DNA from: Thalassospira lohafexi
Lineage (GTDB): Bacteria; Pseudomonadota; Alphaproteobacteria; Rhodospirillales; Thalassospiraceae
Direction: 5' to 3'
DNA: 24,000 nt
Assembly (NCBI RefSeq): GCF_002844275.1
Contig: NZ_NXGX01000003.1
Location: forward strand, 267,549 to 291,548
Positions within the stretch are counted from its first letter, which is position 1. Every line of letters starts with the position of its first letter. Below are positions 2,749 through 24,000 of the stretch, piece after piece. Under the pieces are notes generated by a model that had not been told where the DNA came from, did not search any database, and saw nothing but the letters and a program-made list of their open reading frames with translations. The translations under genes were made by a program, and so were the position numbers.

Positions 2749-2809
2749 GTGCGCTGTCCTTATATTATTGTTCGCAAAGATCATTTGTGTGGATGCATGC
2801 GAAAGGTAT

Positions 2810-3640: not shown

Positions 3641-5125
3641 TCAGTCACCGGTCATGATGCGATCAACAAGCTGTTTGACGCTCGGAATGTTGCCGTTGGC
3701 ATAGAACGGGTCTTCACCAAACTTGTAGGCATTATGGCCGGCAAACATCAGTTCGTTTTCAACCTTCGCACCGTGCGCAATGTTCTGAAGCGTTTTTTGA
3801 ATACAGAAAGAACGCGGATCAGCCCGTTTGCCGGTCGTGCCACTGTGCTGTTCCCAGTTGGAGAACTGGCACTGTGACAAACAGCCCATGCAATCGATCT
3901 GGTCTTTCTTAACCGTCAATGCGCTTTCAGGTGTCAAAAACACCATGGTTTCATCCGGGGTCGGCATGCCTTCGGTGTATCCGGCATCAAGCCAGCCACG
4001 CACCTTATCGGCATCATCTTCGCGGACGTAAATCGGACGCCCACGACGGCCCAGCGGAATACCGACATGCAGGTCTGCTTCGGCAGTACGCGAATAGCGC
4101 ACCTGACGATCAGACCGCTGATGCAGGTCTTCGAGGAAGGTGTTACGCACCGCCGAGCTATAGAAACCCGTCGGGCTGAATTTATGCAGCGATACATCGC
4201 CATCCTGAAGGCTGGTCAGGCGCTGTTTCCACTCGTCGGAAATCTCGCTTTCCTGAGTCAGAAGCGGACGGGTACCAAACTGGAAGGCCACCGGGGCAAC
4301 TTCCGGATTGTCGATCCAGTCTTCAAAATCACGCAGGAACCAGACACCGCCAGCCATAATGATTGGCACATGGTTCAGGCCAACCGAATTCATGAATGTA
4401 CGCAGGTCACGGACACGCGGGAACGGATCTTCGGGCACAAGCGGATCTTCGGAATTCGACAGACCGTTATGGCCACCGGCACGCCATGGATCTTCATAAA
4501 CCACACCGCCCAGCCATTCCGGGGTCTTTTTATACGACCGCAGCCACAATGCGCGGAAAGCACGGGCCGAAGACACAATCGGATAATAGTGAACGCCATA
4601 GTGGGCTGAAATCTGGGCAATCTTGTAGGGCATGCCTGCACCACAGGTCACCCCGTGAATAAGGCCTTTGGCACCTTCAAGCACACCCTCAAGGATCGGC
4701 TCAGCGCCGCCCATTTCCCACAAAACGTTCATATGCAAACGGCCTTCGCCGTTCCGCATTTCGTGGGCAATCTGAGCCTGTGCAATGCCGCCGCGAATAC
4801 CGTACGCAATCAGTTCCTGATGGCGGTCTCCGCGGGTTTTTCCTGCGTATTCGATCGGAACCATGTTGCCGTTCTCGTCATACGAGTCAGCATTCACAGC
4901 GGAAAAAGTCCCGATACCGCCGGCAGCGGCCCATGCGCCGGAACTTTTGCCCGTCGATACAGCGACGCCTTTGCCACCTTCGATAACTGGCAAGACTTCT
5001 TTACCCGACATGACGAGCGGATTAAGGGCTTTCAAGTTCGTCTCTCCCATTCGGCAATTTGCCAGCGACACCCCTGCATCGCTTTGACTGTCGGACGACG
5101 TTACATTTTTATCGTCGTCCGGCAT
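3641..5125 (-). CDS. Nitronate monooxygenase (NMO / 2-nitropropane dioxygenase) family FMN oxidoreductase, long form
   Basis: 494-aa ORF with FMN TIM-barrel-like glycine motifs (VIEGGKGV, GGIGTFS, VTCGAGMP, IIMAGGVW). The first ATG is 9 bp after the pnp stop and has no clear Shine-Dalgarno. An internal ATG at 5050 is an alternative start. Confidence 0.65.
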   Translation of the reverse strand: MPDDDKNVTSSDSQSDAGVSLANCRMGETNLKALNPLVMSGKEVLPVIEGGKGVAVSTGKSSGAWAAAGGIGTFSAVNADSYDENGNMVPIEYAGKTRGDRHQELIAYGIRGGIAQAQIAHEMRNGEGRLHMNVLWEMGGAEPILEGVLEGAKGLIHGVTCGAGMPYKIAQISAHYGVHYYPIVSSARAFRALWLRSYKKTPEWLGGVVYEDPWRAGGHNGLSNSEDPLVPEDPFPRVRDLRTFMNSVGLNHVPIIMAGGVWFLRDFEDWIDNPEVAPVAFQFGTRPLLTQESEISDEWKQRLTSLQDGDVSLHKFSPTGFYSSAVRNTFLEDLHQRSDRQVRYSRTAEADLHVGIPLGRRGRPIYVREDDADKVRGWLDAGYTEGMPTPDETMVFLTPESALTVKKDQIDCMGCLSQCQFSNWEQHSGTTGKRADPRSFCIQKTLQNIAHGAKVENELMFAGHNAYKFGEDPFYANGNIPSVKQLVDRIMTGD

Positions 5126-5134
5126 CCAATTTGC

Positions 5135-7258
5135 TTATTCGGCGTCGCCTGCTTCGAGGTCTGCACCGGTTTCCTGGTCGACACGTTTCATCGACAGTTT
5201 GATCTTGCCGCGATCATCGAAACCGATGACTTTGACTTTAACTGCATCGCCTTCTTTCACGATATCCGAAACCTGTTTGACACGCTCAGGTGCCAGTTCG
5301 GAAATGTGAACAAGACCGTCGCGGGCGCCAAAGAAGTTTACGAAGGCACCAAAGTCGACAGCCTTAACGACCTTACCATCATAGATATGATCCAATTCAG
5401 GTTCTGCAACGATTGATTTGATCCAATCAACAGCTTGCTTGCCTTTTGCACCATCGGTATGTGCGACAGTGATCGAACCATCATCTTCGATATCGACTTT
5501 TGCGCCGGTCTCTTCGCAGATTTCGCGAATAACCTTACCGCCCGAACCGATGACATCACGAATTTTGTCTTTCGGGATCGAAAACTGGGTAATGGTCGGT
5601 GCATTGCCCGATACTTCACCACGTGCTTCCGGAAGCGCCTTGGACATTTCACCAAGGATATGCAAACGGCCGTCACGTGCCTGTTTCAGGGCGATCTGCA
5701 TGATGTCTGCGGTCACCGAGGTGATCTTGATGTCCATCTGCAGCGAGGTGATGCCGTTTTCGGTACCAGCAACTTTAAAGTCCATGTCACCAAGGTGATC
5801 TTCATCACCCATAATGTCAGAAAGAACAGCAAAGTCGTCTGATTCCTTGATCAGGCCCATCGCAATACCCGCAACCGGACGTACCAGCGGAACACCGGCA
5901 TCCATCATTGCAAGCGAGCTTGCACACACCGTCGCCATCGAAGACGAACCGTTTGACTCGGTAACTTCCGAAACAATACGGGTGGTGTACGGGAAGGTGT
6001 CTTTGGTCGGCATCAACGGATGCAGCGCACGCCATGCAAGTTTACCATGACCGATCTCACGACGGCCAGGCGACCCCATGCGGCCAGCTTCACCAACCGA
6101 GTACGGCGGGAAGTTGTAATGCAGCATGAAGCTTTCACGGTATTCACCGTCAAGCGCATCAACAATCTGCTCGTCCTGACCGGTACCAAGGGTAACAACA
6201 GCCAGTGCCTGCGTTTCACCACGGGTAAAGATCGCAGAACCATGCGAACGCGGCAGAACCGAAACTTCGCCCATGATCGAACGAACGTCAGCACCGCTAC
6301 GGCCATCAATACGTTTGCCGGTTTTCAGGATCGCACCGCGAACGATGTCTTTTTCCAGATCCTTGATGATCGACGAAACTTTGCCTTTAAGCCCATCAGG
6401 AACTTCATCACCAAGTTTCTCGACGATTTCAGCTTTGGCAACCGAAATGGCAGCCGAACGTTCCTGTTTGACAACATGGCTATAAGCTTTGGTCAGGGCA
6501 TCGGTGCCAAGACCAGCAACTTTTTCGACCAATGCGTCATAGCCTTCTGGCAGTTCAGCAATAGCGCGCGGCTCTTTGGCAGCGTCTTCAGCAAGATCGA
6601 TGATCAGGTCAAGAACGCCCTGGAACTGATCGTGACCGAATTTAACTGCACCAAGCATGATTTCTTCGGACAGCTCGGATGCTTCGGACTCAACCATCAT
6701 CACGCCATCGCGGGTACCCGCAACAACAAGATCAAGATCGCCTTCTTTAACCGAGTCGGTCGCCGGATTGAGGATGTACTCACCATCTGCATAACCAACG
6801 CGCGCAGCACCAATCGGACCGAGGAACGGCAGGCCAGAAATCGTCAGCGCAGCCGAGGTGCCGATCATGGCAACCACATCCGGGTCGTGTTCCATGTCGT
6901 GCGACAGAACGGTACAAACGATCTGGGTGTCGTTGCGATACAGCGGGTGGAACAGCGGGCGGATCGGACGGTCGATCAGACGCGAAACAAGCGTTTCTTT
7001 TTCCGAAGGACGGCCTTCACGTTTGAAGAAACCACCCGGGATTTTACCCGCGGCAAATGCTTTTTCCTGGTAGTTAACCGTCAGTGGGAAAAAGTCGACA
7101 TCCGGGCGCGGCTGTTTGGCGCCAACGGCAGTACAAAGAACAACGGTCTCACCATAGGTGACCTTGACAGCGCCATCGGCCTGACGGGCGATTTTACCGG
7201 TTTCAAGGGTCAGAGTGGCGTTGCCCCACTGCATTTCCTTACGGACGACATTAAACAT
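5135..7258 (-). CDS. pnp: Polyribonucleotide nucleotidyltransferase (PNPase)
   Basis: 707 aa with two RNase PH domains, a KH domain ([11 protein letters not shown]) and an S1 domain ([17 protein letters not shown]). A strong AGAGGAAGAG Shine-Dalgarno precedes the ATG. Confidence 0.97.
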
Positions 7259-9116: not shown

Positions 9117-11798
9117 TTACAGTTCGACGGCGATTTCCTCGTTTTCGAAGCACTCAATCATATCGCCTGCCTGCAGATCATTATACTTGGCGAACGACAT
9201 GCCACATTCATAGCCCTCACGGACTTCTTTGACTTCGTCCTTGAAGCGACGCAGGGTCGACAGCTCGCCGGAGTGAATGACCACGTTGTCGCGCAAGAGA
9301 CGCACACCTGCACCACGTTTGACGGTACCTTCGGTAACCATACAACCAGCGATCTTGTTGCCAGAGATGGTGAACAGGTCGCGGATTTCGGCGTAGCCCA
9401 GGAACTTCTCGCGAACTTCCGGCGACAGCATACCCGACAGCATCTTTTTAATGTCATCAGCAACATCATAGATGATCGAATAATACCGAATATCAACGTT
9501 ATCACGACGCGACTGTTCGCGGGCCTGCTGGTTTGCACGCACGTTAAAGCCGATGATCAGCGCATTCGATGCACGGGCAAGTGTGACATCCGACTCGTTA
9601 ATTCCACCAACGCCGCTGTGCAGGACACGAACCGAGACTTCTTCGTTACCAAGCTTCTGCAAGGTCCCGATAAGCGCCTCGACCGACCCCTGAACGTCAC
9701 CCTTGATGACAATCGGAAGTTCTTTAACTTCACCGCTCTGCGCGAACATGTTCTCAAGTGCGGATTTCTTCATCGCCGCAGCCTGCGTTTCGCGGATACG
9801 ACGCTGACGGAAATCAGAAACTTCACGTGCTTTTGCTTCGTTTTCAACAACCACGAAGTCATCACCCGCTGCTGGAACACCGTTCAGGCCAGTGACCTCA
9901 ACCGGCATGCCCGGAATGGCATCGACAACACGGTTACCGTGATCATCAACCAGCGCACGAACACGGCCCCATTCTGCACCCGTGACAAAGATATCACCGG
10001 TTTTCAGGGTCCCGCGCTGAACCAGAACGGTTGCGACCGGACCACGGCCTTTTTCCATACGTGCTTCGACAACAACGCCATCGGCAACACGTTTGGGGTT
10101 GGCTTTAAGGTCAAGAACCTCAGACTGCAGCAGAATGGCTTCTTCAAGTTCGGTAAGGCCAAGACGCTGTTTGGCCGAAACCTCGACAGCCTGAACGTCA
10201 CCGCCCATTTCCTCGACCACAACTTCATGCTGAAGCAGCTGGGTTTTAACCCTTGAGGCATCGGCACCCGGTTTGTCGATCTTGTTGATCGCAATAATCA
10301 TCGGAACACCGGCTGCCTTGGCATGGCTGATGGCCTCGATCGTTTGCGGCATGACCGAGTCGTCGGCTGCAACAACAAGAACAACGATATCGGTAACCTT
10401 CGCACCGCGCGAACGCATTTCGGTAAATGCCGCGTGGCCCGGGGTATCAATAAAGGTGATTTTCGCACCGGTTGCCATGGTGACCTGATAGGCCCCAATG
10501 TGCTGGGTAATACCACCGGCTTCGCCACCGGCGACATCGGTTGCACGCAGCGCATCAAGCAAAGAGGTTTTACCATGGTCAACGTGGCCCATAACGGTCA
10601 CGACCGGCGGACGACCAATCAGATTGTCGTCATTTTCATCAACCGATACCAGCGATTCTTCAATATCAGCATCTGAAACACGCTTCATGTTATGGCCGAA
10701 TTCTTCTACCACAAGCTGGGCGGTATCTGGATCAAGGCTCTGGTTGATGGTCGCCATAACGCCCATGCCCATCAGGGACTTGATCACGTCAGCTGCACGT
10801 TCGGCCATACGGTTGGCAAGTTCCTGAACAGTAATGACGTCAGGAACGACCACATCACGCACGACTTTCTCCTTAGGTTTCTGCGGGCCCTGAGCACGGG
10901 CCTTGGCTTTGGCCTGCTGGCGTTTGATCGATGCCATTGAACGACGACGACCACTTTCGTCACCGCTCATGGCATTGTTGATCGACAGTTTGCCACGGCG
11001 ACGGCCATCATCGGTTTTGGCGCGCGCAGCCCCACCCTTTGCTTCTTCTTCGGCACGCTTGCGTGCTGCCAAACGAGCATTTTCCTCGTCGATTTCCTTG
11101 CGGCTTTTAGTCTTGGCAGCAGCAGGGGCCGTACGACGACGCTCTTCAGGAACCAGCGGTTCGGCCGGTTCACCAGGCATGATTTCTTCAGCTGCTTTTG
11201 GCTTACCAACCGGTTTTGGTTTGGAAGGTTTGCCTTTGGCTGTTGATGCCGCAATCGACTTTTCAACGTCTTCGACAGACATCGAGCCATCTTTAACCGG
11301 AGCATCTTCTGCTTTGTCAGCAGCTTCTGCCGCTTTGGCTTCTTCTGCCTTGCGGGCGTCTTCTTCGACCTTGCGCGCAGCTTCTTCGCGTGCACGCACC
11401 TCGGCATCCGCTTCATCCTGCTTGCGGCGCTCTTCAGCAGCCTTCAAAGCAGCCATGCGGGTTGCACGCTCACTGTTGGTCAGATTGCCCTGATCTTCAA
11501 CAACCGGACGCTTTTTTACTTCTTTAACCGGTTCCTTTTTAGCTTCCGGTGCCGATTTGGCTTCCGGTGCTTCTGGCGCCGCCTGTGGCTCCTCGGCAAC
11601 GAAATCCTTTTTCACTTCACGGAAGCGACCGGATTCGTTCTTTTCGAATGTCCGCTTCTTGCGCACTTCGACGGTCACAGATTTTGACCGTCCATGTGAG
11701 AAGTTTTGGCGAACCTGCCCTGCCTCGACCGTCTTGCTCAATTCAAGTTTCGATCTGTTGAGGCTCAGCGGTTTCTTCTCCTGATCGCGATCACTCAT
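9117..11798 (-). CDS. infB: Translation initiation factor IF-2
   Basis: G domain ([28 protein letters not shown]) plus a long Lys/Glu/Ala-rich N-terminal region. The ATG at 11798 (MSDRDQEKK) is preferred over the ORF-track GTG at 11870. Confidence 0.93.
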
Positions 11799-11878
11799 AA
11801 TCCGTCCAACTTCCTCATTTCCTGCGGGATCGACTTCACATGTCGACCCTGTCCTGTCCGTCCGGCGCACGCCTGTTG

Positions 11879-12469
11879 TCAGACTGCGCGAAATCCTTCA
11901 AGCCGCTTCAAGGAGCGACCCAGCCGTTTGGCCAGGCCTCCTGGCGCAACGGCCACATGTACTGCTTTTTCACGACCAAAAGCCGCGCCGATTTCAGCAG
12001 CGTTCAGAACGGAATAAATCGGCAGATCCCGGGCCTTGGCCTCGATCTTGGATTTTCCGTCTGCAGCACCATCGCGTGCTGCCAATATCAGAGCCGCACC
12101 CTCAGCAATTTGGGCACGTGCTTTTTCAAACCCGGCAACGGCTTGACCGGCACGTCGTGCAAGCGACAACAGATCAAGACATTTCTGCGTTAGCAGCTGC
12201 TCGATCCGGTCAGCAAGCTCGGGGTCGATCACGACTTTTTGCCGCGCTGCCCGGGCAAAGGCATTCTTTGCACAGGCGGTATTTATCACATCCCGCGACG
12301 GGCACAACCATAATCCCCGTCCCGGCAACCGTTCCTCAAGATCGGGAACAACCGAACCATCTGGTCCGATTACAACCCTGAGAAGATCTTCCTTGGCCCG
12401 GACCTCGCCGGTGACAATGCACCGGCGTTCCGGAACCTCGGCTACCTTGCCGCCTTTGCGATGCGACAT
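11879..12469 (-). CDS. YlxR/DUF448-type RNA-binding protein fused to an L7Ae-like domain
   Basis: 196 aa. RRCIVTGE...LLRVV...GRGLWLC is the YlxR motif, and the C-terminal half ([18 protein letters not shown]...[11 protein letters not shown]) is L7Ae-like. It occupies the conserved position between nusA and infB. A GGAGGA Shine-Dalgarno is present. Confidence 0.85.
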
Positions 12470-14620: not shown

Positions 14621-14660
14621 CCCAAAATGCACAAAAGAGCGGGCGCAAGGCCCACTCTTT
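14621..14660 (-). terminator. Terminator-like hairpin in the rimP-nusA leader (candidate attenuator, also ends hemO transcription)
   Basis: Minus-strand RNA reads AAAGAGUGGGC-CUUGC-GCCCGCUCUUU (11 bp including one U.G pair) followed by UGUGCAUUUUGG. Confidence 0.55.
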
Positions 14661-14742: not shown

Positions 14743-15369
14743 TCAACCTTGGGATTGCGTGTCAGCCGTGCGCGCGGCCTCGACCATCAGCAGATTACGG
14801 AAAAATTCAAAGGCCGCACAGGCACCATCGCGAACCATCTCATCTTCATTCTTTCCAAGTGCCAAGCTATTGACCTGATCGACAAATTCACGCCAATGAC
14901 GCCCCCGGCCATCTGCATGTGCTGCCAGATGACGCGCCCCGAAATCAGCAGTAAGACCGATCCCCGCAGCCGCCTTTAACAAAAAGGCAGCACCCAGCGA
15001 TGATCCTTCACAAACATAAAGCCAGCCAACACGCGCCATTCCGATCTGCGCTATATCTTGGCGACTCCTGAAATCAGGAACCTCACATCCCATGTCGGCA
15101 ATATCCTTTGACACAGCAGCATATCGGCTTCGATCTGCCAGCCCCGGCATCAGTTGGTTCAGGTCATCGGCCACATAAAGCGGCCGCATTGCACGATGAA
15201 ATATATATTGCAGCCGAAGAAACCGGGTATAGTTTTCCCGACTGTCAAAGGGTGCCATTGCCATCACCATATCATCAACACTCTGATGGTCGGTCCGCGT
15301 TGATTGTTTCAGCTCAGCCAATCGCGTCGGCTGGCCTCGCATCGTCTCTGGTTGTGATATCTCGTTCAC
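14743..15369 (-). CDS. hemO: Heme oxygenase, HemO/PigA type (biliverdin-producing)
   Basis: 208 aa. LKQSTRTDHQSVDDMVM...PFDSRENYTRFLRLQYIFH...GWLYVCEGSSLGAAFLLK...GARHLAAHADGRGRHWREF closely parallels Neisseria HemO as I recall it, including the proximal-His segment and the GS-LG distal helix. The start is GTG with a GAGGGG Shine-Dalgarno 7 nt upstream. Confidence 0.85.
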   Translation of the reverse strand: MNEISQPETMRGQPTRLAELKQSTRTDHQSVDDMVMAMAPFDSRENYTRFLRLQYIFHRAMRPLYVADDLNQLMPGLADRSRYAAVSKDIADMGCEVPDFRSRQDIAQIGMARVGWLYVCEGSSLGAAFLLKAAAGIGLTADFGARHLAAHADGRGRHWREFVDQVNSLALGKNEDEMVRDGACAAFEFFRNLLMVEAARTADTQSQG

Positions 15370-15433
15370 GTCAAAGCCCCTCGTGACTGTTCTATTTGCC
15401 TAAACTGGCTGCTGGTAAACAGCCCATAGAATC

Positions 15434-15462
15434 TGAAACGATCCGGACCACGCGATATCTGA
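15434..15462 (-). promoter_or_regulatory. ECF-type promoter candidate upstream of hemO (TCAGA-N17-CGTTTCA)
   Basis: The minus strand reads TTCAGAtatC, 12 nt, then TCGTTTCA. It has the same architecture and spacing as the sites at 22414-22442 and 23524-23552. It lies 65 nt upstream of the hemO start. Confidence 0.5.
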
Positions 15463-15494
15463 ACGCCGCAATGCTTTCCTGTGACATCGGGATG

Positions 15495-16859
15495 TTAATC
15501 CTCTCGAAAGGCACGCGCGAACTGATCCGACAAAGGTTTAAAAAGATAACTCAGCGCAGAACGTTCTCCGGTTGCCAAAAAGGTTTCAACAGGCATGCCT
15601 GGGACAAGCTCCTGCCCATCAAGTTTGGCAAGTTCACCAGCCCCAATACGCACGCGCACCACATAATAACTCTCCCCCGTCAGCTCATCGCGATCCAACT
15701 CGGCGGAAATCCGCGACACTTCCCCAGACAATTCCGGCGTTGTCCGCTGGTTAAACGCAGTAAAGCGTAGCATCGCGGTTTGACCAGGCATGACCTGTTC
15801 GATATCACGCGGATTAACATGCGCTTCGATCACCAGTTCATCGCGGTCAGGCACAATCCCCATGATCCGATCACCACCGGCAACAACACCGCCCACCGTA
15901 TGAACAGCCATCTGATAAACCGTCCCATCATAGGGGGCACGAATGTCAATCCGGCGCAGTTGATCATTAAGCGCAATCTGGCGTTGCTGTAATTCGGCAA
16001 GCTGCTGATCAATATCGGTCAGTTCGGACAGAACGTCTGTCTGACGGTCACGATCAAGTTGCAAAATCTGCATTTCAGTTTCGGAAATCTGCATATGGGT
16101 CGCCGCAATTTGCGCAGTCAGTTCACCATGAGTCCCGTCGAGACTAGCCCGCTCCCTGCGTAACGCCGCTACCCGCGTAATCGGAACAAGTTGCTTGGCA
16201 TACAGCATCTCTAACCCGCCTAGTTCATCAACAATGTGCCTGCGTTCCTCTTCATTTGCTGATTTCTGTGCCGTTAATCCGACGATTGTTTCGGAAAGCT
16301 GGGCCAGTTTTTGCGCAAGCTGTTGTTTTTCACCTTCAAGGCTGCTGCGCCGTGCCGCAAACAGGCGTTTTTCGGCACTTACCAATTCAGAAAGCTTGGC
16401 ATCCTGCTGTCGACTTTTAAAAGCATCCGGCAGGGACAGCTCATCATTTACATCGCGTTCTGCGACCAGACGCATCCGACGCGCTTGAAAGGCATCAAGC
16501 TGGGATTCGACAATGCCAAGACTGGCACGCGCCATTGTATCATCGAGCCGGATCAAAAGATCACCGGCCTTAACCTGATCACCGTCATGGACGTGAATTT
16601 CACCAACGATGCCACCATCGGCATGCTGGACATCCTTGACGTTGCTTTCGACCACCATTTTACCAGATGCCACCACGGCCCCGGAAAGCTGGGCAAGAAA
16701 CAGCCACACCATCAAACCTGCCATCAAGGCAAAGACAATCCCGCCGCCCCAAAACATATGCTTTCTTAATGCCAGTTGTGCCGCAGATAGACCCGTCTGT
16801 TGCCGGCCTGCTGCCGAGGGGGATACGGACATCGCACGCACAGATGAAACACCGATCAT
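15495..16859 (-). CDS. hasE: HlyD-family type I secretion membrane fusion protein (HasE/PrtE-like)
   Basis: 454 aa with an N-terminal TM segment, long coiled-coil Q/L/E-rich segments and an HlyD-type beta barrel. The ATG overlaps the upstream ABC gene's stop (ATGA). Confidence 0.88.
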   Translation of the reverse strand: MIGVSSVRAMSVSPSAAGRQQTGLSAAQLALRKHMFWGGGIVFALMAGLMVWLFLAQLSGAVVASGKMVVESNVKDVQHADGGIVGEIHVHDGDQVKAGDLLIRLDDTMARASLGIVESQLDAFQARRMRLVAERDVNDELSLPDAFKSRQQDAKLSELVSAEKRLFAARRSSLEGEKQQLAQKLAQLSETIVGLTAQKSANEEERRHIVDELGGLEMLYAKQLVPITRVAALRRERASLDGTHGELTAQIAATHMQISETEMQILQLDRDRQTDVLSELTDIDQQLAELQQRQIALNDQLRRIDIRAPYDGTVYQMAVHTVGGVVAGGDRIMGIVPDRDELVIEAHVNPRDIEQVMPGQTAMLRFTAFNQRTTPELSGEVSRISAELDRDELTGESYYVVRVRIGAGELAKLDGQELVPGMPVETFLATGERSALSYLFKPLSDQFARAFRED

Positions 16860-18580
16860 GCTGTTTCTCCTACCTGTCGGACGGTTTTGCGCAAGATGTC
16901 ATCGCGCGCACCAAAGGCGACCTGACGTCCGTCCTGAATAATGGTTGTCAGGTTAACCGTCGCCAGTGCACCGGGACGATGCGCTATCAAAACAACAATG
17001 GCACCACGTTCACGCGCATCGCGGACTGCCTGCAAAAGCGACTGTTCACCCGCGCTATCAAGATTGGAATTGGGCTCATCAAGCACGATCAGGAACGGAT
17101 CTCCAAATAGGGCGCGTGCCAAACCAATCCTTTGACGCTGCCCCCCTGACAGAACCACACCACCGGCCCCGACTTTGGTGTCATAACCATTGGGCAGGGA
17201 CTGGATCAGGTCATGCACACCCGCAGACCGGGCCGCCGAAACGATATCTTCGGATCTGGCATCAGGGATAAGCCGGGCAATGTTGCGGGCAACCGTGTCG
17301 TCAAACAGTTCAACATCTTGTGGCAAATACCCGACATGACGCCCCAGCCGTTCAGGATCCCAATGTGATAATTCAGCCCCGTCAATGCGGATGGAACCTC
17401 CCCGAATGGTGCCAATGCCGACCATTGCCCGCCCAAGAGTCGATTTTCCCGATCCGCTGGGACCAATGATCCCCAAACCATCTCCGGCCTTAAGCACCAG
17501 ATCATTAACCCGCAACAATACTTTTTGGGCATGTACAGACTCCCCACCCGACGTTGCCACTACAAGATTTGAGATTGTCAGACCTTGCGTTGGCGCAGGC
17601 AACTGCATGCGTTCGGAATGAGCGTCCTGTTTACTGAGAATGTGATCCAGGCGGGTGCGCGCTTGTCGGGCTGCGACAAACCCCCGCCAATTGGCAATGG
17701 CCTGCTCGACCGGTGAGAGTGCGCGTGCGGTCAGGATTGATGCAGCCACCATGGCACCGGGCGTGACTTCCTGCCGGATCGCAAGATAGGCCCCAAGGGC
17801 AAGCACAATGGATTGCAACGCAAGCCGAATGACCTTGATATAAGCCGAAAATGTTGAATTAACGTCGCCAACGACGGTGTTTTCCCTCAAGTAGCGATCA
17901 TTTTGCTGACCCCATTGGTGCCGAAAAGCCCCCAACATCCCCATCGCCCGAATGGCTTCGGCGTTACGGCACCCTGCTTCGACCAGATTGCTTCGCACGA
18001 CTGTTTGCGCATTCATGTGCGCGACCTTCTTACGGGTCACCAGTTCACTGACAAATGTCAGCGTTATTAAAACAATCCCGCCGACCAACGCCAATATGCC
18101 AAGCCAAGGGTGGAAAACAAAAACAATCCCCAGAAAAAGCGGCATCCACGGCAGATCACAAATCGCAATAGGACCGGCCCCACCAAGGAATTGGCGAATT
18201 TGATCAAGGTCATTGAGTGGCTGCGCCGTTTCCCGACCATTGCGCAAGCGAATGGTAAGCGTCTGTTCCAATGCCTTTGGCCCAATCTGCTCATCAACCC
18301 GCCAGCCAATCCGCACCAGCATGCGGGCGCGCAGGGCATCCACACCGCCCAGAAACAAATAAAGACCGATCACAAGACCAATCAACGCCAGAAGGGTCGG
18401 GACACTCTGACTGGCCAGCACACGATCATATACCTGAAGCATAAAAAGCGGGCCCGTCAGCATCAGCAGGTTTGAGACACCGCTCAATCCTGCGACAACC
18501 CAGAACACACGGCGCAAAGATGCAATCGCGGATCCAATTGGCGATTGGGACGCACCATGCGCAGTGTTTTGGGGGGACAT
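16856..18580 (-). CDS. hasD: Type I secretion ABC permease/ATPase, PrtD/AprD/HasD type (no N-terminal peptidase domain)
   Basis: N-terminal NLLMLTGPLFMLQVYDRVL motif, Walker A GPSGSGKST, signature LSGGQRQRIGLARAL and Walker B LIVLDEPNSNLD. The ATG at 18580 is preferred. The ORF-track GTG at 18649 lies inside a GC hairpin. Confidence 0.9.
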   Translation of the reverse strand: MSPQNTAHGASQSPIGSAIASLRRVFWVVAGLSGVSNLLMLTGPLFMLQVYDRVLASQSVPTLLALIGLVIGLYLFLGGVDALRARMLVRIGWRVDEQIGPKALEQTLTIRLRNGRETAQPLNDLDQIRQFLGGAGPIAICDLPWMPLFLGIVFVFHPWLGILALVGGIVLITLTFVSELVTRKKVAHMNAQTVVRSNLVEAGCRNAEAIRAMGMLGAFRHQWGQQNDRYLRENTVVGDVNSTFSAYIKVIRLALQSIVLALGAYLAIRQEVTPGAMVAASILTARALSPVEQAIANWRGFVAARQARTRLDHILSKQDAHSERMQLPAPTQGLTISNLVVATSGGESVHAQKVLLRVNDLVLKAGDGLGIIGPSGSGKSTLGRAMVGIGTIRGGSIRIDGAELSHWDPERLGRHVGYLPQDVELFDDTVARNIARLIPDARSEDIVSAARSAGVHDLIQSLPNGYDTKVGAGGVVLSGGQRQRIGLARALFGDPFLIVLDEPNSNLDSAGEQSLLQAVRDARERGAIVVLIAHRPGALATVNLTTIIQDGRQVAFGARDDILRKTVRQVGETA

Positions 18581-18627
18581 TTTGCCAAACACGTTTTTTA
18601 TATTCCAAAGATGTTTTATGTTGGGGT

Positions 18628-18651
18628 GGGTGCCGCTGTTACGCGGCACCC
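18628..18651 (-). promoter_or_regulatory. GC-rich hairpin in the hasA-hasD spacer
   Basis: GGGTGCCGC-N6-GCGGCACCC, a perfect 9-bp stem with no U-tract. A second hairpin lies at 18667-18694 (GCCCGU..ACGGGC plus CC/GG). Confidence 0.45.
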
Positions 18652-18701
18652 TGCATCAAGACTTTGCGCCCGTTCCGCTGCTTGTGGGACGGGCCGTTTT
18701 G

Positions 18702-19433
18702 TTAAACGAAGTCAGTTGCGTCGATATCGGTGTAATCAACACCGGTCAGCGTGACCGTGCCATTGGCATGGGAGATCAGCGCATTGCCGCTGCCATCATC
18801 GGCAACAGTGACCGAGGCATAATCGATATCAAGAAGATCGGTACCGTCGGTAAAATCGGTCACGGTGTCGTCACCGAAATCTGCTGACGTATCGAATTCG
18901 AAGGTATCCGCACCGCCATTGCCGGTCAGAACATCATCACCGGCCCAGCCGCCGATGACGTCATCACCAGTGCTGCCGTTGATTTCGACACCTTCAGATG
19001 CAAAGACCGACTGCAGTTCCGAACTATCACCACTGAAAAGCCCGGTCAGAACCGTACCGGTTTCACTCGAACTCAAAGCAAGCCCGGAAATATCGACGCT
19101 CGAATCGCTCAGATAGTAATCACCATTGGCATCCTGAGCCTTGGTTTCACCGAACGAAAGCTGATCAAGATTACCAACGATCTCATGCGTACTGATGTCA
19201 TAGCTGAAATCGGTGCCACTGTTGGATGAGGCCAGGAAACCGCCCGTATAGCTCGAACCGCTGTCTTCATCGCTCAAATAATATTGTTCGCCCTGAAACA
19301 AACCGTTGCCATTCAGGAACTCACCATAGTTGAACAGACCCTTGGAAAAGTTTGCATCAAAGTCTGAAAGCATACCTTTGAAGTCCACACCGTTTCCTGA
19401 TCCATCTGCATTCAGATCAATCGTGATCGTCAT
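18702..19433 (-). CDS. hasA: HasA-like hemophore fused to RTX repeats and a T1SS C-terminal secretion domain
   Basis: 243 aa from the ATG at 19433, with a GAGGAG Shine-Dalgarno 8 nt upstream. The N-domain aligns by eye with Serratia HasA. Matching segments (this protein vs HasA) are HEIVGNLDQLSFGE vs HTLYGQLDSLSFGD, SVDISGLALSS vs DVSFGGLNLSS, and VLTGLFSGDSSEL vs VVYGLMSGDTGAL. Residues 153-179 form three GGxGxDxUx-like nonamers. The tail is D/T-rich and ends DATDFV. Confidence 0.75.
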   Translation of the reverse strand: MTITIDLNADGSGNGVDFKGMLSDFDANFSKGLFNYGEFLNGNGLFQGEQYYLSDEDSGSSYTGGFLASSNSGTDFSYDISTHEIVGNLDQLSFGETKAQDANGDYYLSDSSVDISGLALSSSETGTVLTGLFSGDSSELQSVFASEGVEINGSTGDDVIGGWAGDDVLTGNGGADTFEFDTSADFGDDTVTDFTDGTDLLDIDYASVTVADDGSGNALISHANGTVTLTGVDYTDIDATDFV

Positions 19434-19479
19434 TTCGGAATCTCCTCGTTGTTTGTCACCCCAACCATTGAAGCAACAA

Positions 19480-19512
19480 ACATGAGAATGACTCTTAGTT
19501 TCATAATGAGTC
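19480..19512 (-). promoter_or_regulatory. Operator-like motif upstream of hasA (shared with the hasR upstream region)
   Basis: The minus strand GACTCATTATGAAACTAAGAGTCATTCTCATGT matches plus strand 22451-22483 at 26 of 33 positions. It has a weak Fur-box resemblance and lies next to a TTGACT hexamer. Confidence 0.45.
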
Positions 19513-19552
19513 AATATGTTTTTTTGTTTAAAAACAATTAGTTAATAGGAAG

Positions 19553-19587
19553 CACCAAAACACCGGCCAGGGAATTTCCTGACCGGT
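19553..19587 (-). terminator. Rho-independent terminator / attenuator between hasR and hasA
   Basis: Minus-strand RNA reads CCGGUCAGG-AAAUUC-CCUGGCCGG (9 bp with one U.G pair) followed by UGUUUUGGUG. It lies 27 nt after the hasR stop. Confidence 0.55.
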
Positions 19588-19613
19588 TAATGCCATTTAA
19601 ATTGCCTTGTGAC

Positions 19614-22352
19614 CTAGAAATTACCGCTTAAAGTCACAATCGCCGTCCGTCCCGGTGCAGCCGCATATGTTCCCCCTGATCCCTGAACGTAAGCTTCATC
19701 AAGCATGTTGTTCACCGCAAATCGCAGCGAGACATTCTCGTTGACTTCATAGGAGCTGTAGAAGTCGAACACACGATACTTGAAATACTCGCCGACCGAC
19801 GTTGACAGTGTTGCATGGCCAATATTGTCTTGCGGGTACACAAATGTCGCGCGCATCCCCATGACCAGATCTTGATCAAACAACCTGAAACCGCCATCAA
19901 GTGTGTATTTTCGTTTTGGCGGTGCATAAACACCATTAAGGCTGGATGCAGATCCATATTGATCTGCGACCGAAAGGGCTGCTGCGGAGTATGTGGTATC
20001 AAGGATGTAGGGGTCATAAGTCCCCTTAAGGTCCATGTCCGAGGTCGTCAGTGTTCCACCGAGAAAATACTCACCGCCATCATAGGCCATCTCAAGTTCG
20101 GTACCGTGGATATAGACTGGGTCGGACAGGTTCACCATACCAGCCGCCTGATAGGTCCCGGTCAAACTGGCCAGAAGAAGCGATGGAGTCGGCACATAGC
20201 CCATGGTGATGTAGTTATCCACCGTGGTACGATAATAAGCAACTTTGGCCCGGAAACCGTCGCCTTGTTGCAAAACATTGTCGAATTTGAAATTCGCACC
20301 AATTTCCTGTGTACGCGACTCTTCAGCCTTAAGATTAGCATTTGAGAAAAAGGAAAGCGGTACACCGCCAAGATGCGAACCTTTCAACATCGTCTCCATC
20401 ACAGTCGGAGCACGAAAGTTTTCACGATAATTGGCGAACAACTGGATACCATTGACAGGTGTAATGCCGAAACCGAATGACGGGGAAACCTTGTCTTGGA
20501 CCAAGTCAATATCAAGAGACGCATCATTGTCAGTCGCACATTGATTTGCCGAGCCAAAGAAATTTGGAACCGCTTCACACCAGTAAGAATCTCCATCCAG
20601 AGCAAACCGGTCATAGCGAACACCTGCGCTCAGCTCAAACAGATCATTCCAGCCATATGTTCCCGTTAGATAGCCGCCGTAGACATCCCGCTGACCGGCA
20701 GGCGTATTGCCTTCAACTTGATAAGGAAGGTCGCCTGAACCACCTAAATCTTCGACTTCCGAACGTGTTGTGGCTTTGTCGTGGAAAAACTCGGTCCCAT
20801 AGCCTAAACCAAATTCACTAAGCCCATCTCCAAACCGGGTCAGATCAAATTCGCTACGGTTCGCGATATCGCCGCCCGCTGTGTCCACTGTAAAAAGATT
20901 GGTGTAAGGATCATGCTCGATCGCGCCTGCCGCGCTGTAGCGGGCGGGCCGATACTGACTGTTTTCGGTGCGCGTCCAGAACAGATTGGTATCAAGATTC
21001 ACCAAATCCGTTTCCGGGTTCCAGTTATGCTTAGCTGTTAAAGTGTCGGTCTTGGTCTCATTGAAGTCTGTTTTTTCGTTCGCGATGTCATTGGTTTTGG
21101 CATAGTTGCTTTTTGATCCGACATATCCAAGATTGAGCTCCTGATCTTCGGTCAAATAGATATTTGCCTTAACCAATCCAGACGTCTGACGCAGAAAAGT
21201 GTAGTCGGAACGGGAACTGTCTCGATCGTGGTATGTTCCGTTGCCGGTAACAAACAAACCGGGATTATGTGTACCAGCCCGATAATTCCCTATCACCTTA
21301 CGGCTGATGGTTGCCGAAACATCAAGTTTCGGTGAAATCCGTGCACCGGCGGATGCGTCACCAGCAAAATCGTAGCTGTTGGTACCGTGACTAATATTGA
21401 CCTTGCCGCCCCAATCCTCATCATCATCAAGGATATCATTGGTATTCAGTGTCCGCATGGTCACAATACCGGCTGAACTCCCCGCACCACCATTTTGATT
21501 AAGGTTAGATTTTTCAATCTCAACTTCTGCCAAAAGTGCTGGATCAAGATAGACGCGCGATGAAGCACCGTGAGAGGCTTGGTTATAGTTCTGTCGTGCC
21601 CCGTCGATATTAACGTTTACCCGGCCCATTTCCTGCTGACCGCGGACATTGACGGTCAATCCCGGATCACGGGCATCGTTTGAAATGTCGACACCGGCAA
21701 CTTGATTGAAAATGTCGCGTGCTTCCCGCACAGGGGATTTGCGCATGCTTTCCTGCGTAATCACGGCAATCGACCCAGGTGTTTCATAAACCTCATCAGG
21801 AACGCCGTTTGGGCCCAGATTACGAATTGCTGCCGTTACCGTGATTGGCTCTGTGATATTTGCCGAACTCTGCGCATTGTCCTGCTGTGGATTTGCAATC
21901 GAGATGGTGCTTTGGTTGATCACACTCCATGCCAAACCGCTTTGGCGAAGCAAAATATCGAGCGCGCTCGCAGTGGTCATATCACCATTCACACCGGCGC
22001 TTGTGGCGCCATCAGGCAGCACACCGTCAAACACAACATCCACGCCGGAAATACGCGAAAAAACAACCAACGCACTGCTTAATGACTGTGCTTCGATATC
22101 AAAGCGATGTTGCCCAGCCTGCAATCGAGCCGGTCCAGTATCAGCCTGTGCCAGTTCCGGTCCCTCTCGCGTTTGCAGTAAACTTTCATTTTTGGACTGC
22201 GCCTGGGCAACGGCAAAACCCGGCGCAGACATCACGATACCAGCACTCAATATTGCGGCCACGACCAGATGCGAACGCCCCAATGATGTTGTTGCCCCAA
22301 GCAAATTTTTATTCATCGTGCTGCACACACGACCCACCCCGTCGGAAGGCAT
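19614..22352 (-). CDS. hasR: TonB-dependent heme/hemophore receptor with N-terminal STN signalling domain (HasR-like)
   Basis: Signal peptide ending FAVAQA and an STN-like segment (FDIEAQSLSSALVVFSRISGVDVVF...ALDILLRQSGL). TonB box EPITVTA, plug domain and terminal F. Heme-receptor boxes NFRAP...GSH...SNANLKAE map to nt 20331-20417. The ATG at 22352 has an AGGAG Shine-Dalgarno 9 nt upstream; the ATG at 22316 is an alternative. Confidence 0.9.
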   Translation of the reverse strand: MPSDGVGRVCSTMNKNLLGATTSLGRSHLVVAAILSAGIVMSAPGFAVAQAQSKNESLLQTREGPELAQADTGPARLQAGQHRFDIEAQSLSSALVVFSRISGVDVVFDGVLPDGATSAGVNGDMTTASALDILLRQSGLAWSVINQSTISIANPQQDNAQSSANITEPITVTAAIRNLGPNGVPDEVYETPGSIAVITQESMRKSPVREARDIFNQVAGVDISNDARDPGLTVNVRGQQEMGRVNVNIDGARQNYNQASHGASSRVYLDPALLAEVEIEKSNLNQNGGAGSSAGIVTMRTLNTNDILDDDEDWGGKVNISHGTNSYDFAGDASAGARISPKLDVSATISRKVIGNYRAGTHNPGLFVTGNGTYHDRDSSRSDYTFLRQTSGLVKANIYLTEDQELNLGYVGSKSNYAKTNDIANEKTDFNETKTDTLTAKHNWNPETDLVNLDTNLFWTRTENSQYRPARYSAAGAIEHDPYTNLFTVDTAGGDIANRSEFDLTRFGDGLSEFGLGYGTEFFHDKATTRSEVEDLGGSGDLPYQVEGNTPAGQRDVYGGYLTGTYGWNDLFELSAGVRYDRFALDGDSYWCEAVPNFFGSANQCATDNDASLDIDLVQDKVSPSFGFGITPVNGIQLFANYRENFRAPTVMETMLKGSHLGGVPLSFFSNANLKAEESRTQEIGANFKFDNVLQQGDGFRAKVAYYRTTVDNYITMGYVPTPSLLLASLTGTYQAAGMVNLSDPVYIHGTELEMAYDGGEYFLGGTLTTSDMDLKGTYDPYILDTTYSAAALSVADQYGSASSLNGVYAPPKRKYTLDGGFRLFDQDLVMGMRATFVYPQDNIGHATLSTSVGEYFKYRVFDFYSSYEVNENVSLRFAVNNMLDEAYVQGSGGTYAAAPGRTAIVTLSGNF

Positions 22353-22413
22353 ATTCAATTTCTCCTGATTTCTCAGAAATGCAAATGCGTCGCATTCATT
22401 TCCTGTTACTTTC

Positions 22414-22442
22414 TGAGACGAAGAAGAAAATCAGTTATCTGA
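22414..22442 (-). promoter_or_regulatory. ECF-type promoter candidate upstream of hasR (TCAGA-N17-CGTCTCA)
   Basis: The minus strand reads TTCAGAtaaC, 12 nt, then TCGTCTCA. It lies 62 nt upstream of the ATG at 22352. The -35 pentamer overlaps the left arm of the 55-bp palindromic unit. Confidence 0.5.
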
Positions 22443-22492
22443 AATTAAATGATTTATTATGAAAATAATTTTCATTCTCATTTAATTTCAGA
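22438..22492. promoter_or_regulatory. 55-bp palindromic unit with an embedded Fur-box-like 8-1-8 palindrome
   Basis: Perfect 15-bp arms TCTGAAATTAAATGA (22438-22452) and TCATTTAATTTCAGA (22478-22492). The inner palindrome is ATGAAAAT-A-ATTTTCAT (22459-22475). Its core TGAAAATAATTTTCA matches the 7-1-7 Fur consensus TGATAATNATTATCA at 12 of 14 specified positions. Confidence 0.55.
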
Positions 22493-22528
22493 GGCTATCC
22501 ATTGCATGCGGGAAGGTTTTCCAGGGAA

Positions 22529-23449
22529 TTATGCGGCGCGAACAACCGTAAGATAGTCGGTGAATTGATCGACCTTTATCGACAAAACTGTCGAAAGCGC
22601 ATCCAGAACATGCCGTGACCGGTCGAGATCAACGACAATTGTTACCTTGCGCGATTTCAAGGCGTCTCCAAGGATGACGATCTTGCCATCTTGCCAGCGT
22701 TCAAGAATATTGACGACGTCGTCAAGACGCTCGCCAATAAACACAAGTTGTCCATTCCGCCAGGCAAGCGCATTGCCGACATTGACCTTTCTTGGATCGC
22801 TGACCCAACCATCGCCATATCGAACTTCCTGCCCGGCCTGAACCGGCTTCATGGTTCCGCCAGCCCGTAAGACAAGACCATTTTGCTCGGCGATCACGGT
22901 TGTCGTGCCAGCGTAGTTTGCCACATCAAACCTGCCGCCTTCCGACCAAGTGGCTCCGCCAGTCGCGGCAACAAAAAAGTTTGTCCCTGCAACTCGATGG
23001 TCAAACCAGGCCTCACCATGATGAATGGCGACGCCTGAAACACCCTGTTTCGCAACAAGTGACAAGGACGTATCGCTGGCAAGCATCGCTTTAACACCGC
23101 CCGGTAGAACCATTTCGCGGCGCTCACCACTGGCTGTTCTGATGTCTGCCAAGGGATGGAACCGATGCGCAGTCCATCCAGCGCCGACAACCATAGCGGC
23201 AATTGTGCCCCCCAGAAATGCCCGACGGCCAAGATTTCTGTTGGCGTCAATTTGCAAACTGGAACTACCATTCCACAAACGTTCAATTTCATCGAAAGCA
23301 TGAAGGTGACTCGGATCTTCGGCGACCCAGCGCGCAAAAGCTTTTCGGTCATTTTCCGTTTCACTGCCATCAAGAAGCAACGCAAACCAATAAGCGGCCT
23401 GATCGCTCACGGTTCTTGGCATGGTGTCAAAATGTGTTTCCGGGATCAT
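22529..23449 (-). CDS. hasS: FecR-family anti-sigma factor / transmembrane sensor (HasS-like)
   Basis: N-terminal anti-sigma segment (AAYWFALLLDG...FARWVAEDPSHLHAFDEIERLW), one TM segment (AFLGGTIAAMVVGAGW) and a FecR periplasmic domain. The start is uncertain: ATG at 23449, ATG at 23422 or the ORF-track TTG at 23485. Confidence 0.85.
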   Translation of the reverse strand: MIPETHFDTMPRTVSDQAAYWFALLLDGSETENDRKAFARWVAEDPSHLHAFDEIERLWNGSSSLQIDANRNLGRRAFLGGTIAAMVVGAGWTAHRFHPLADIRTASGERREMVLPGGVKAMLASDTSLSLVAKQGVSGVAIHHGEAWFDHRVAGTNFFVAATGGATWSEGGRFDVANYAGTTTVIAEQNGLVLRAGGTMKPVQAGQEVRYGDGWVSDPRKVNVGNALAWRNGQLVFIGERLDDVVNILERWQDGKIVILGDALKSRKVTIVVDLDRSRHVLDALSTVLSIKVDQFTDYLTVVRAA

Positions 23450-23523
23450 ATCGGCATCGCCGTTCTTTATAAAACTCCCCCGCAAAGACGCAAATATACG
23501 CTTTGATGTGCGGGACCTGATAA

Positions 23524-23552
23524 TGAGACGAGCGGGATTTGAGGATTTCTGA
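23524..23552 (-). promoter_or_regulatory. ECF-type promoter candidate upstream of hasS (TCAGA-N17-CGTCTCA)
   Basis: The minus strand reads ATCAGAaatC, 12 nt, then TCGTCTCA. It lies in the 85-120 nt gap between the sigma and anti-sigma genes. Confidence 0.45.
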
Positions 23553-23569
23553 TCTGGCGATCATTTTTC

Positions 23570-24000
23570 TTATGGTTTTTCCATCGCCTCTTTGACAACG
23601 CCTAAGGCCTTGACCATCCGACTGAACGCCGTTTGGGTCGGAATCCCCAACTGCTCGCCAATCTGGACATATGTTTTGCCTTCGACACGGGCCAAAATAA
23701 AGACATCACGCAATGGTCGGGGCAGGGACTCAAGCACCTTTTGAAGGTGACGCAGCTCCTGACGAGACCAGGCAATCTGTTCCGGAGACGGGGCGTCGTC
23801 GGCGATGACTTCAAACGCCAGTTCAGAATCCTGCACAAAGGTCAGAATGCGTTCGCGTCTGAAATGGTCAATGACAAGATTGTTGGCAGTTCGATAAAGA
23901 TATGATTGCGCAAAACATTGCTCAGGCAGGCTCGGTGTTGCAACAACCCGAACAAAAGTATCCTGCACAATATCATCGGCAAGATGCCACGATATCCTGC
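23570..24000 (-). CDS. hasI: ECF (FecI-type) RNA polymerase sigma factor, 5' end outside the window (HasI-like)
   Basis: The frame is open to the window edge and reads ...RISWHLADDIVQDTFVRV (region 2). Region 4 reads LPRPLRDVFILARVEGKTYVQIGEQLGIPTQTAFSRMVKAL. The ORF-track GTG at 23968 is internal. Confidence 0.85.
   Translation of the reverse strand, partial: RISWHLADDIVQDTFVRVVATPSLPEQCFAQSYLYRTANNLVIDHFRRERILTFVQDSELAFEVIADDAPSPEQIAWSRQELRHLQKVLESLPRPLRDVFILARVEGKTYVQIGEQLGIPTQTAFSRMVKALGVVKEAMEKP

Follow-up and report, generated by a model that had tools for sequence, protein, structure and literature searches.

A 24,000-nucleotide stretch of Thalassospira DNA (the window, to which all positions refer) carries, at 14743–24000, seven consecutive co-oriented minus-strand open reading frames (ORFs), which we read, with a probability of about 0.8, as a functional Has-type hemophore-dependent heme-acquisition and signaling system of marine Thalassospira. 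ORF calling and scans with profile hidden Markov models (HMMs) give the order, in the sense of transcription, as extracytoplasmic function (ECF) sigma factor, FecR-type anti-sigma factor, HasR-type receptor, HasA homologue, ATP-binding cassette (ABC) exporter, HlyD-type adaptor and HemO-type heme oxygenase. A preliminary description of this DNA, made from the letters alone, had proposed such a locus, i.e., hasI-hasS-hasR-hasA-hasD-hasE with hemO added and the sigma factor gene incomplete, and the coordinates, the HMM matches, the HasR comparison and the HasA profile and fold evidence given below bear it out. The genes are the following.

23570–24000, minus strand, truncated at its 5' end by the edge of the window: hasI-like ECF sigma factor gene (Sigma70_r2 and r4_2 domains; matches to FecI-group NCBIfam models)
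22529–23485, minus strand, with translation possibly starting at the ATG at 23449 instead: hasS-like FecR-type anti-sigma factor gene (DUF4880, FecR and FecR_C domains)
19614–22352, minus strand: hasR, receptor gene (STN, Plug and barrel domains; TIGR01785)
18990–19433, minus strand: hasA, N-terminal hemophore domain, residues 1–148 (profile, HHalign and fold)
18702–18989, minus strand: hasA, C-terminal repeats-in-toxin (RTX) beta-roll and predicted type I secretion signal, residues 149–243 and stop codon (RTX repeats, fold match)
16856–18649, minus strand: hasD, PrtD/HasD-type ABC permease/ATPase of a type I secretion system (T1SS) (TIGR01842; ABC_membrane and ABC_tran domains)
15495–16859, minus strand: hasE, HlyD-family T1SS membrane-fusion adaptor (TIGR01843)
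14743–15369, minus strand: hemO, HemO/PigA-type heme oxygenase (Pfam Heme_oxygenase)

The reading hinges on the product of hasA (18702–19433), a protein of 243 amino acids. A profile of its 16-member family matches HasAp of Pseudomonas aeruginosa with E = 1.1e-7, aligning positions 1–148 with 1–154, and HHalign against six canonical HasAs returns a probability of 98.9% (E = 2.5e-17, 139 columns). An AlphaFold2 model of the protein (pLDDT 84), compared with the PDB by Foldseek, retrieves HasA structures at each of ranks 1–44, with E-values of 1.4e-10 to 8e-7 and TM-scores of 0.55–0.68 on target length; the structures are those of Yersinia pestis, P. aeruginosa, P. protegens, Serratia marcescens and Y. 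pseudotuberculosis. Tyr78 (19200–19202) and His83 (19185–19187) are the equivalents of HasA Tyr75 and His83, and the pair is invariant in 16 Thalassospira sequences, in 23 diverse RTX-type sequences and in canonical HasAs (alignments A1, A3 and A6). In 14 genomes the gene lies with hasR on one side and the genes of a dedicated T1SS on the other. By profile and predicted fold, the 243-residue protein is a HasA homologue and a member of the HasA superfamily, and it would be expected to bind heme via Tyr78 and His83. Translation is assigned to the ATG at 19433, located behind a GAGGAG Shine-Dalgarno sequence, and all homologues begin with MTITIDLNAD; a 270-residue ORF starting at a TTG was rejected as an extension made by the ORF finder, since that TTG belongs to a -35-like TTGACT.

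The preliminary description recognized the likeness to HasA and overlooked both the RTX tail and the loss of the His32 loop. Residues 149–243 constitute an RTX module with three tandem nonapeptides (GSTGDDVIG, GWAGDDVLT and GNGGADTFE, residues 153–179, positions 18897–18977) and, behind them, a beta-roll cap; the C-terminus reads ...DATDFV. The Pfam HemolysinCabind model scores 20.6 bits in the window protein (cutoff 23) and matches 14 of the 16 family members, at best with 3e-6. The C-terminal ~90 residues match the AlgE R-modules and the RTX region of the Pseudomonas MIS38 lipase in sequence (4.5e-5 and 1.3e-5), and Foldseek matches the tail to a lipase beta-roll with 1.6e-5. The protein shows the features by which RTX substrates of T1SSs are defined, i.e., tandem GGxGxDxUx nonapeptides and a beta-roll ahead of a C-terminal signal, with Ca2+ binding as a prediction, and the tail probably carries a secretion signal of the protease/lipase type. 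In textbooks, canonical HasA stands for the type I substrates that have no RTX repeats and depend on SecB; its non-RTX ...LAA-type C-terminal signal is not present in the window protein, which has the RTX tail and ...DATDFV instead. Published work describes canonical HasA as devoid of GG repeats or RTX and as requiring SecB for its secretion (PMC4648471; PMC8277102). In the hemophore domain, the hairpin that bears the Tyr/His pair is three residues shorter than in canonical HasA, with Y-x4-H (Y+5) as opposed to Y-x7/8-H (Y+8).

The other six genes were all assigned by HMM or sequence comparison, either above curated cutoffs or by strong matches. The receptor scores 443 bits with the heme-receptor model TIGR01785 (cutoff 317) and aligns with S. 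marcescens HasR over residues 71–906, signaling domain included, with E = 2.2e-78, whereas matches to direct heme receptors are much weaker (ShuA, 2.6e-22; PhuR, 1e-12). An N-terminal STN signaling domain and both heme-histidine regions are present: the plug histidine is His260, and the FRAP...H...NANL boxes noted in the preliminary description are located at residues 646, 660 (His660) and 671, with NANL in place of NPNL. Judged by these comparisons, the receptor is a HasR orthologue and not a receptor of the ShuA/PhuR type. The hasD product scores 676 bits with TIGR01842 (cutoff 510) over residues 43–588 of 597, and an HMM scan detects no N-terminal C39/CLD domain in it; the hasE product scores 390 bits with the type I HlyD model TIGR01843 (cutoff 209). 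The two genes overlap by ATGA, as the preliminary description had stated. Its reading of the last gene as a HemO oxygenase is likewise confirmed: the product matches Pfam Heme_oxygenase with 1e-22 (81 bits, cutoff 23), Neisseria meningitidis HemO (1J77) with 5.7e-45 and the P. aeruginosa heme oxygenase with 1.7e-39, and its His28 aligns with the proximal histidine. As regards signaling, the full-length sigma factor in relatives has ~174 residues, and the orthologue at 5399–5923 of locus L001 bears both region 2 and region 4; the anti-sigma factor matches the FecR model NF007296 with 1e-20, under the model cutoff. Sigma factor regions 2 and 4, the anti-sigma domains and the adjoining STN-bearing receptor gene together identify a putative FecI/FecR-type signaling pair, for which the names HasI and HasS are given by position.

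The non-coding sequence of the locus contains the following elements.

22459–22475, minus strand: perfect 8-1-8 AT-rich palindrome ATGAAAATTATTTTCAT upstream of hasR, inside a conserved Fur-box-like element with the family consensus GATAATAAAAATTATTTTC (11 Thalassospira loci)
22416–22442, minus strand: candidate HasI (FecI-group ECF) promoter of hasR, TCAGATAA-N17-CGTCT, both boxes invariant or nearly so (alignment A5)
22379–22396, minus strand: hasR leader element AATGCGACGCATTTGCAT, AATGCGA-N-GCATTTGCAT, with a small palindrome AATGC-N3-GCATT, nearly invariant across Thalassospira species (alignment A5)
19562–19587, minus strand: stem-loop with T-run directly 3' of hasR, terminator or attenuator (terminator scan)
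19484–19514, minus strand: hasA promoter region, with an invariant TTGACT at 19514–19509 followed by the operator GAAACTAAGAGTCATTCTC at 19502–19484 (alignment A4)
18668–18694, no strand assigned: GC-rich stem-loop with an 11-bp stem between hasA and hasD, without a T-run on the coding strand and scored on the plus strand
14634–14660, minus strand: terminator-like hairpin ending the locus before rimP (terminator scan)

Across species, seven of the ten stem pairs of the hairpin that follows hasR show compensatory changes. Because TTGACT and a conserved operator come after this hairpin, hasA appears to have its own iron-responsive promoter. The operator GAAACTAAGAGTCATTCTC occurs once in the window, with zero occurrences expected by chance; it is Fur-box-like, and its core also resembles the iron control element (ICE) motif of Irr. 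The operators upstream of hasR and hasA are probably iron-regulated, with Fur and Irr as candidate regulators. The element TCAGATAA-N17-CGTCT is likely to be served by the ECF sigma factor HasI, an assignment made by analogy with known FecI-type promoters. The stem-loop at 18668–18694 is possibly a transcript stabilizer, or a partial terminator that sets the ratio of hasA to hasDE.

The gene order is conserved: the same seven genes were recovered in 14 of the 14 genome loci found in a survey of the kind that the preliminary description had proposed, with rimP-nusA next to them and trmB on the other side. Since the genes beyond the sigma factor gene in relatives (corC, lnt, a helix-turn-helix regulator gene, metK and trmB) are housekeeping genes, the island consists of exactly these seven. 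The window belongs to Thalassospira (Rhodospirillales, Alphaproteobacteria), in agreement with the alphaproteobacterial origin that had been deduced from the flanking genes; among these are an Irr-type regulator gene, a fused YlxR-L7Ae gene between nusA and infB, and rbfA, truB, rpsO and pnp. Homologues of the hemophore retrieved in the first search came from Thalassospira and from metagenome-assembled genomes (MAGs) of Rhodospirillales, and from nowhere else. Across the 14 loci, receptor, anti-sigma factor and hemophore diverge faster (45–75% identity) than the exporter (62–91%) or the flank (77–97%), and the GC content of the locus is mildly lower, 0.50 versus 0.53–0.55. We asked whether the locus had been acquired recently from Gammaproteobacteria by horizontal transfer and rejected this idea, given the mildness of the GC shift, the synteny in 14 genomes and the fact that the nearest relatives of the hemophore are RTX-type proteins of Alpha- and Betaproteobacteria and not canonical gammaproteobacterial HasAs.

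Several observations weigh against a hemophore system of this kind. The Pfam HasA model (PF06438) does not match the window protein even at E ≤ 10, and comparison of single sequences gives a weak match to P. protegens HasA, with E = 3e-3, though from end to end. This comes close to the absence of any HasA-family match or fold that the preliminary description had named as the result that would overturn it; because a direct Pfam match is lacking, the identity as HasA rests on the profile and fold evidence, which overrules the Pfam result. PF06438 matches only one of the 16 family members (5.3e-9), but this is a sibling that is 83% identical to the window protein over the N-terminal domain, and its match counts in favor of HasA homology. 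The His32 loop is ~9–11 residues shorter, so that His32 falls in an insertion that is not present in the window protein, and the loop residue near the lost ligand, residue 36, is histidine in most Thalassospira and tyrosine or tryptophan in the clade of the window; for this reason heme affinity and ligation could differ from those of canonical HasA. At the locus of a 534-residue Mycoplana homologue there is no receptor gene nearby, and not every family member therefore needs to be a hemophore. No hasB/tonB, exbBD, outer-membrane factor or importer gene is encoded in the seven-gene island, neither in the window nor at the loci of relatives. Orthologues of hasB and a long ExbB have been reported in many Alphaproteobacteria (PMC9008036), and the accessible part of the supplements to that work mentions neither Thalassospira nor Pseudovibrio. 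Finally, the open-access literature yielded no paper that deals with an RTX-tailed HasA or with a hemophore from Thalassospira, from Pseudovibrio or from any other alphaproteobacterium, an absence that is no proof.

The tail and the genetic setting of hasA could also be read differently, with the 243-residue protein as a co-factor for heme binding and signaling that does not diffuse freely as a hemophore but is retained at the cell surface or docked to the receptor, tethered by its RTX module in Ca2+-rich seawater, and with surface heme capture and/or signaling as the output. This would account for a beta-roll tail unlike that of canonical HasA, for an STN-bearing receptor with a cognate sigma/anti-sigma pair and for a conserved promoter that hasA has to itself, parted from hasR by a covarying terminator, and it would avoid the cost that a diffusible protein is likely to incur in open water. 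However, the three-repeat RTX tails of proteases and lipases are known to serve secretion and folding, not anchoring, domain scans of the protein detect no anchoring domain, and a dedicated T1SS is encoded directly downstream, which makes retention at the surface improbable, if still the strongest of the alternatives.

A shift of ligand is considerably less probable. Here the hemophore would prefer another marine tetrapyrrole or metalloporphyrin, which HasR and HemO would process, with heme taken at most secondarily. The deletion of the distal loop and the variability of residue 36 (Tyr36, Trp or His) are compatible with such a change, as is the tolerance of the HasA pocket for many non-natural porphyrinoids, documented in titles of PDB entries. 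The features that deal with heme itself are retained, however: the Tyr/His pair is strictly conserved, the receptor keeps both regions with heme-ligand histidines, both this locus and a second, related one (L018) include a gene for a canonical heme oxygenase, and Y. pestis HasA, the top structural match, is known to bind heme without His32.

A last alternative takes the protein as one more RTX "calcium-binding protein" that is exported by a T1SS, has no connection with heme and resembles HasA by coincidence. This would fit the label given to it by most sources and a Pfam result that consists of a sub-threshold RTX repeat, but it is contradicted by the present evidence and scarcely credible: homology to HasA extends, in profile and in fold, over the entire N-terminal domain, the heme ligands are invariant, 14 genomes have the gene flanked by those of a HasR orthologue and of a HasD-type exporter, and NCBI uses the name HasA within the same 90%-identity cluster. 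Scans with Pfam and NCBIfam models together yield sub-threshold RTX matches to the 243-residue protein and nothing else.

Returning to a secreted hemophore as the preferred reading, we propose a course of events that starts from gene identity, homology, fold, residue conservation, synteny and the non-coding elements, and in which heme binding, secretion, the regulator and the physiology are deduced. Iron limitation would lead to derepression of the operators upstream of hasR and hasA. The HasA variant would then be exported in unfolded form by HasD, HasE and an unlinked TolC-type channel, by means of its protease/lipase-type C-terminal signal, and the three-repeat RTX beta-roll would fold on encountering extracellular Ca2+. 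The HasA-fold domain is predicted to capture heme by Tyr78, activated by His83, without a distal ligand of the His32 type. The loaded hemophore would dock on HasR, and heme would move onto the two conserved histidines and be imported with energy supplied via TonB, while the STN domain of HasR would pass a signal to the FecR-like HasS, which would relay it to HasI, and this ECF sigma factor would activate transcription from the hasR promoter. Passage across the inner membrane would require an unlinked importer, possibly the HmuUV-like pair encoded at 17–1860, and HemO would open the heme ring with release of the iron. The mechanism is, as a whole, largely predictable from the Has paradigm.

In the paradigm itself, the Has system of S. 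marcescens (hasI-hasS-hasR-hasA-hasD-hasE-hasB), the first six genes have the same order as in the window, and the likeness extends to a full-length HasR orthologue, a PrtD/HasD-type exporter without an N-terminal domain, and the HasA fold with equivalents of Tyr75 and His83. The window locus differs from it by the absence of hasB, an appended hemO, a separate hasA promoter after a terminator and an alphaproteobacterial host, and its hemophore differs from Serratia HasA by the lost His32 loop, the hairpin shortened by three residues and the replacement of the ...LAA tail with RTX repeats, beta-roll and ...DFV. The Serratia operon, too, contains neither an outer-membrane factor gene (HasF/TolC is unlinked) nor an inner-membrane importer gene. 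The P. aeruginosa system (hasI-hasS-hasR-hasAp-hasD-hasE-hasF) shares with the window the lack of hasB and signaling by an ECF sigma/anti-sigma pair, and its HasAp is the closest solved sequence relative of the window hemophore; HemO acts as a downstream oxygenase in P. aeruginosa as well. Unlike P. aeruginosa, Thalassospira has no hasF gene at the locus, encodes HemO inside it, and has a hemophore with an RTX tail and without a His32 loop. The published P. aeruginosa has locus is hasRADEF and does not include hasB (PMC3475125). The preliminary description had called the window locus rearranged, which is correct for the appended hemO; the missing hasB, outer-membrane factor and importer genes are no departure from the paradigm, because the Serratia operon lacks the latter two and the P. 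aeruginosa locus lacks hasB. The genuine departures are the appended hemO, the separate hasA promoter and the architecture of the hemophore.

With respect to this architecture, the best structural match to the model is Y. pestis HasA (PDB codes 4JES and 4JET; E = 1.4e-10, TM-score 0.66 on target). This protein also has no His32 ligand and binds heme via Tyr75 alone, but it comes from a gammaproteobacterial pathogen, has retained the long loop and ends in the canonical way, without RTX repeats. On the side of secretion, the closest parallel is with the substrates of PrtD/AprD/LipB-type T1SSs, i.e., serralysin proteases and family I.3 lipases, in which RTX repeats are likewise few, the extreme C-terminus is acidic/hydrophobic and the exporter has no C39/CLD domain; the passenger is an enzyme in these substrates and a hemophore in the window protein.

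The same combination of domains is found well beyond Thalassospira. A profile search run exhaustively over 1.84 billion cluster representatives (clusters at 50% identity) gave 51 matches. In ~45 of them the short Y-x4-H hairpin occurs together with RTX repeats and, mostly, a DF-x-F/V end; the canonical HasAs of Gammaproteobacteria are confined to the weak end of this list, and a few hybrids occur as well. A word-indexed homologue search with a diverse alignment led mainly to further Thalassospira clusters. The RTX-type homologues range in length from 238 to >500 residues. Named members belong to Pseudovibrio (WP_008546373), Shinella, Methylobrevis and Mycoplana among the Alphaproteobacteria, and to Cupriavidus and a Comamonas MAG among the Betaproteobacteria. 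Those of Pseudovibrio, Shinella, Cupriavidus and Methylobrevis share the architecture of the window protein, i.e., a HasA domain with short hairpin, RTX repeats and an end of the DF-x-F type, at 29–37% identity, and differ from it in that several have no adjacent dedicated T1SS and hemO. RTX-tailed HasA genes often have genes for HasR-like receptors as neighbors, and the recurrence of such contexts supports the reading of the window locus: sigma factor, anti-sigma factor, STN-receptor, RTX-tailed HasA and ABC exporter genes at locus L019; receptor, RTX-tailed HasA and HemO genes with an adjoining gene for a heme-type periplasmic binding protein at L018; sigma factor, anti-sigma factor, receptor and RTX-tailed HasA genes in Pseudovibrio (L015); and receptor and RTX-tailed HasA genes in Methylobrevis.

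The commonest database label of these homologues is "calcium-binding protein". NCBI applies the name "heme acquisition protein HasA" to some proteins of Pseudovibrio, Shinella and Cupriavidus and to one of Thalassospira lucentensis, the last of which shares a 90%-identity cluster with P0001, a near-identical homologue; alphaproteobacterial HasA is for that reason already known to databases. The view, put forward in the preliminary description, that HasA has been characterized in Gammaproteobacteria only stands for the solved and characterized HasAs met in this analysis, which are all gammaproteobacterial, and fails for annotation. What is new here is the RTX-tailed, short-loop HasA subclass, which is uncharacterized; its partial recognition as HasA by databases is not. 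We suggest tentatively, at somewhat worse than even odds, that RTX-tailed HasAs without the His32 loop form a distinct and widespread hemophore subclass of Alpha- and Betaproteobacteria, in which a Ca2+-driven beta-roll replaces SecB-dependent multi-site recognition and heme is held by the Tyr/His pair alone or with a new aromatic partner.

Intermediate forms of HasA (P0051, P0060 and P0041, from Ectopseudomonas, Halomonas and metagenomes, and P0052 and P0053) are of two types, one with the short Y-x4-H hairpin and the canonical non-RTX ...LAA tail, the other with RTX repeats and yet an ...LAA end. Their existence suggests that stepwise evolution linked the two tail types. Sequences of the P0052 cluster also occur in a transcriptome of the eukaryote Stygiella, probably owing to bacterial contamination. 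Very long proteins in which an N-terminal HasA-like domain precedes dozens of RTX or other repeats were observed as well (Mycoplana sp. BE70, L017:10001–11605; P0064, 934 residues; P0040; P0047); they may not be hemophores, and the neighbors of the Mycoplana sp. BE70 gene in L017 are sulfate-assimilation genes only.

The ocean contains a significant pool of iron in the form of heme. If the proposed function is correct, free-living marine heterotrophs such as Thalassospira mine the heme of seawater with secreted protein hemophores, and a complete, conserved module of hemophore, receptor, signaling proteins and oxygenase in a common marine heterotroph would extend hemophore biology beyond pathogens and prompt one to ask how releasing a protein can be worthwhile in seawater. 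The window protein would then combine, as a natural hybrid, the two classes into which textbooks divide T1SS substrates. A HasA clade with an RTX tail and without a His32 loop makes it possible to tell apart those features of secretion and heme loading that are intrinsic to the fold and those that belong to the gammaproteobacterial lineage, and it allows a direct test of whether an RTX tail removes the requirement for SecB. In terms of annotation, most RTX-tailed HasAs are mislabeled as "calcium-binding protein" and missed by the Pfam HasA model.

The window also contains a candidate for the step that the island does not encode. The preliminary description had stated that there is no heme importer, which is true of the island; a pair of plus-strand genes at 17–1860, ~13 kb from the has cluster, is a candidate HmuUV-type inner-membrane heme importer by sequence comparison. 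The first gene (17–1042), truncated at the left end of the window, specifies a FecCD-type permease; among solved structures it is most similar to the hemin importers BhuU (2e-49) and HmuU (4e-49), versus 1e-33 for BtuC. The second (1039–1860) overlaps the first, and its product is an ABC ATPase that comes nearest to the heme ABC ATPase family, under the cutoff. Database look-ups with the exact sequences of the ABC ATPase and of the window HasA retrieved no entry. The Irr-type regulator gene mentioned above (3001–3447, minus strand) encodes an Irr/IrrA heme-responsive Fur-family protein (NF045678, 200 bits, cutoff 150); placed between the candidate importer and the has locus, Irr could regulate both. 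A rubrerythrin-like gene (2320–2784, minus strand) is located beside it.

Two further observations concern the remainder of the window. A 494-residue ORF at 3641–5125 on the minus strand has a weak nitronate-monooxygenase/FabK-like match (Pfam, 3.5e-7). The AT skew reaches about -0.30 at 11001–12000 and at 1–1000, which is probably compositional, reflecting the A-rich N-terminal part of the minus-strand infB and the T-rich codons of the hydrophobic permease gene, respectively.

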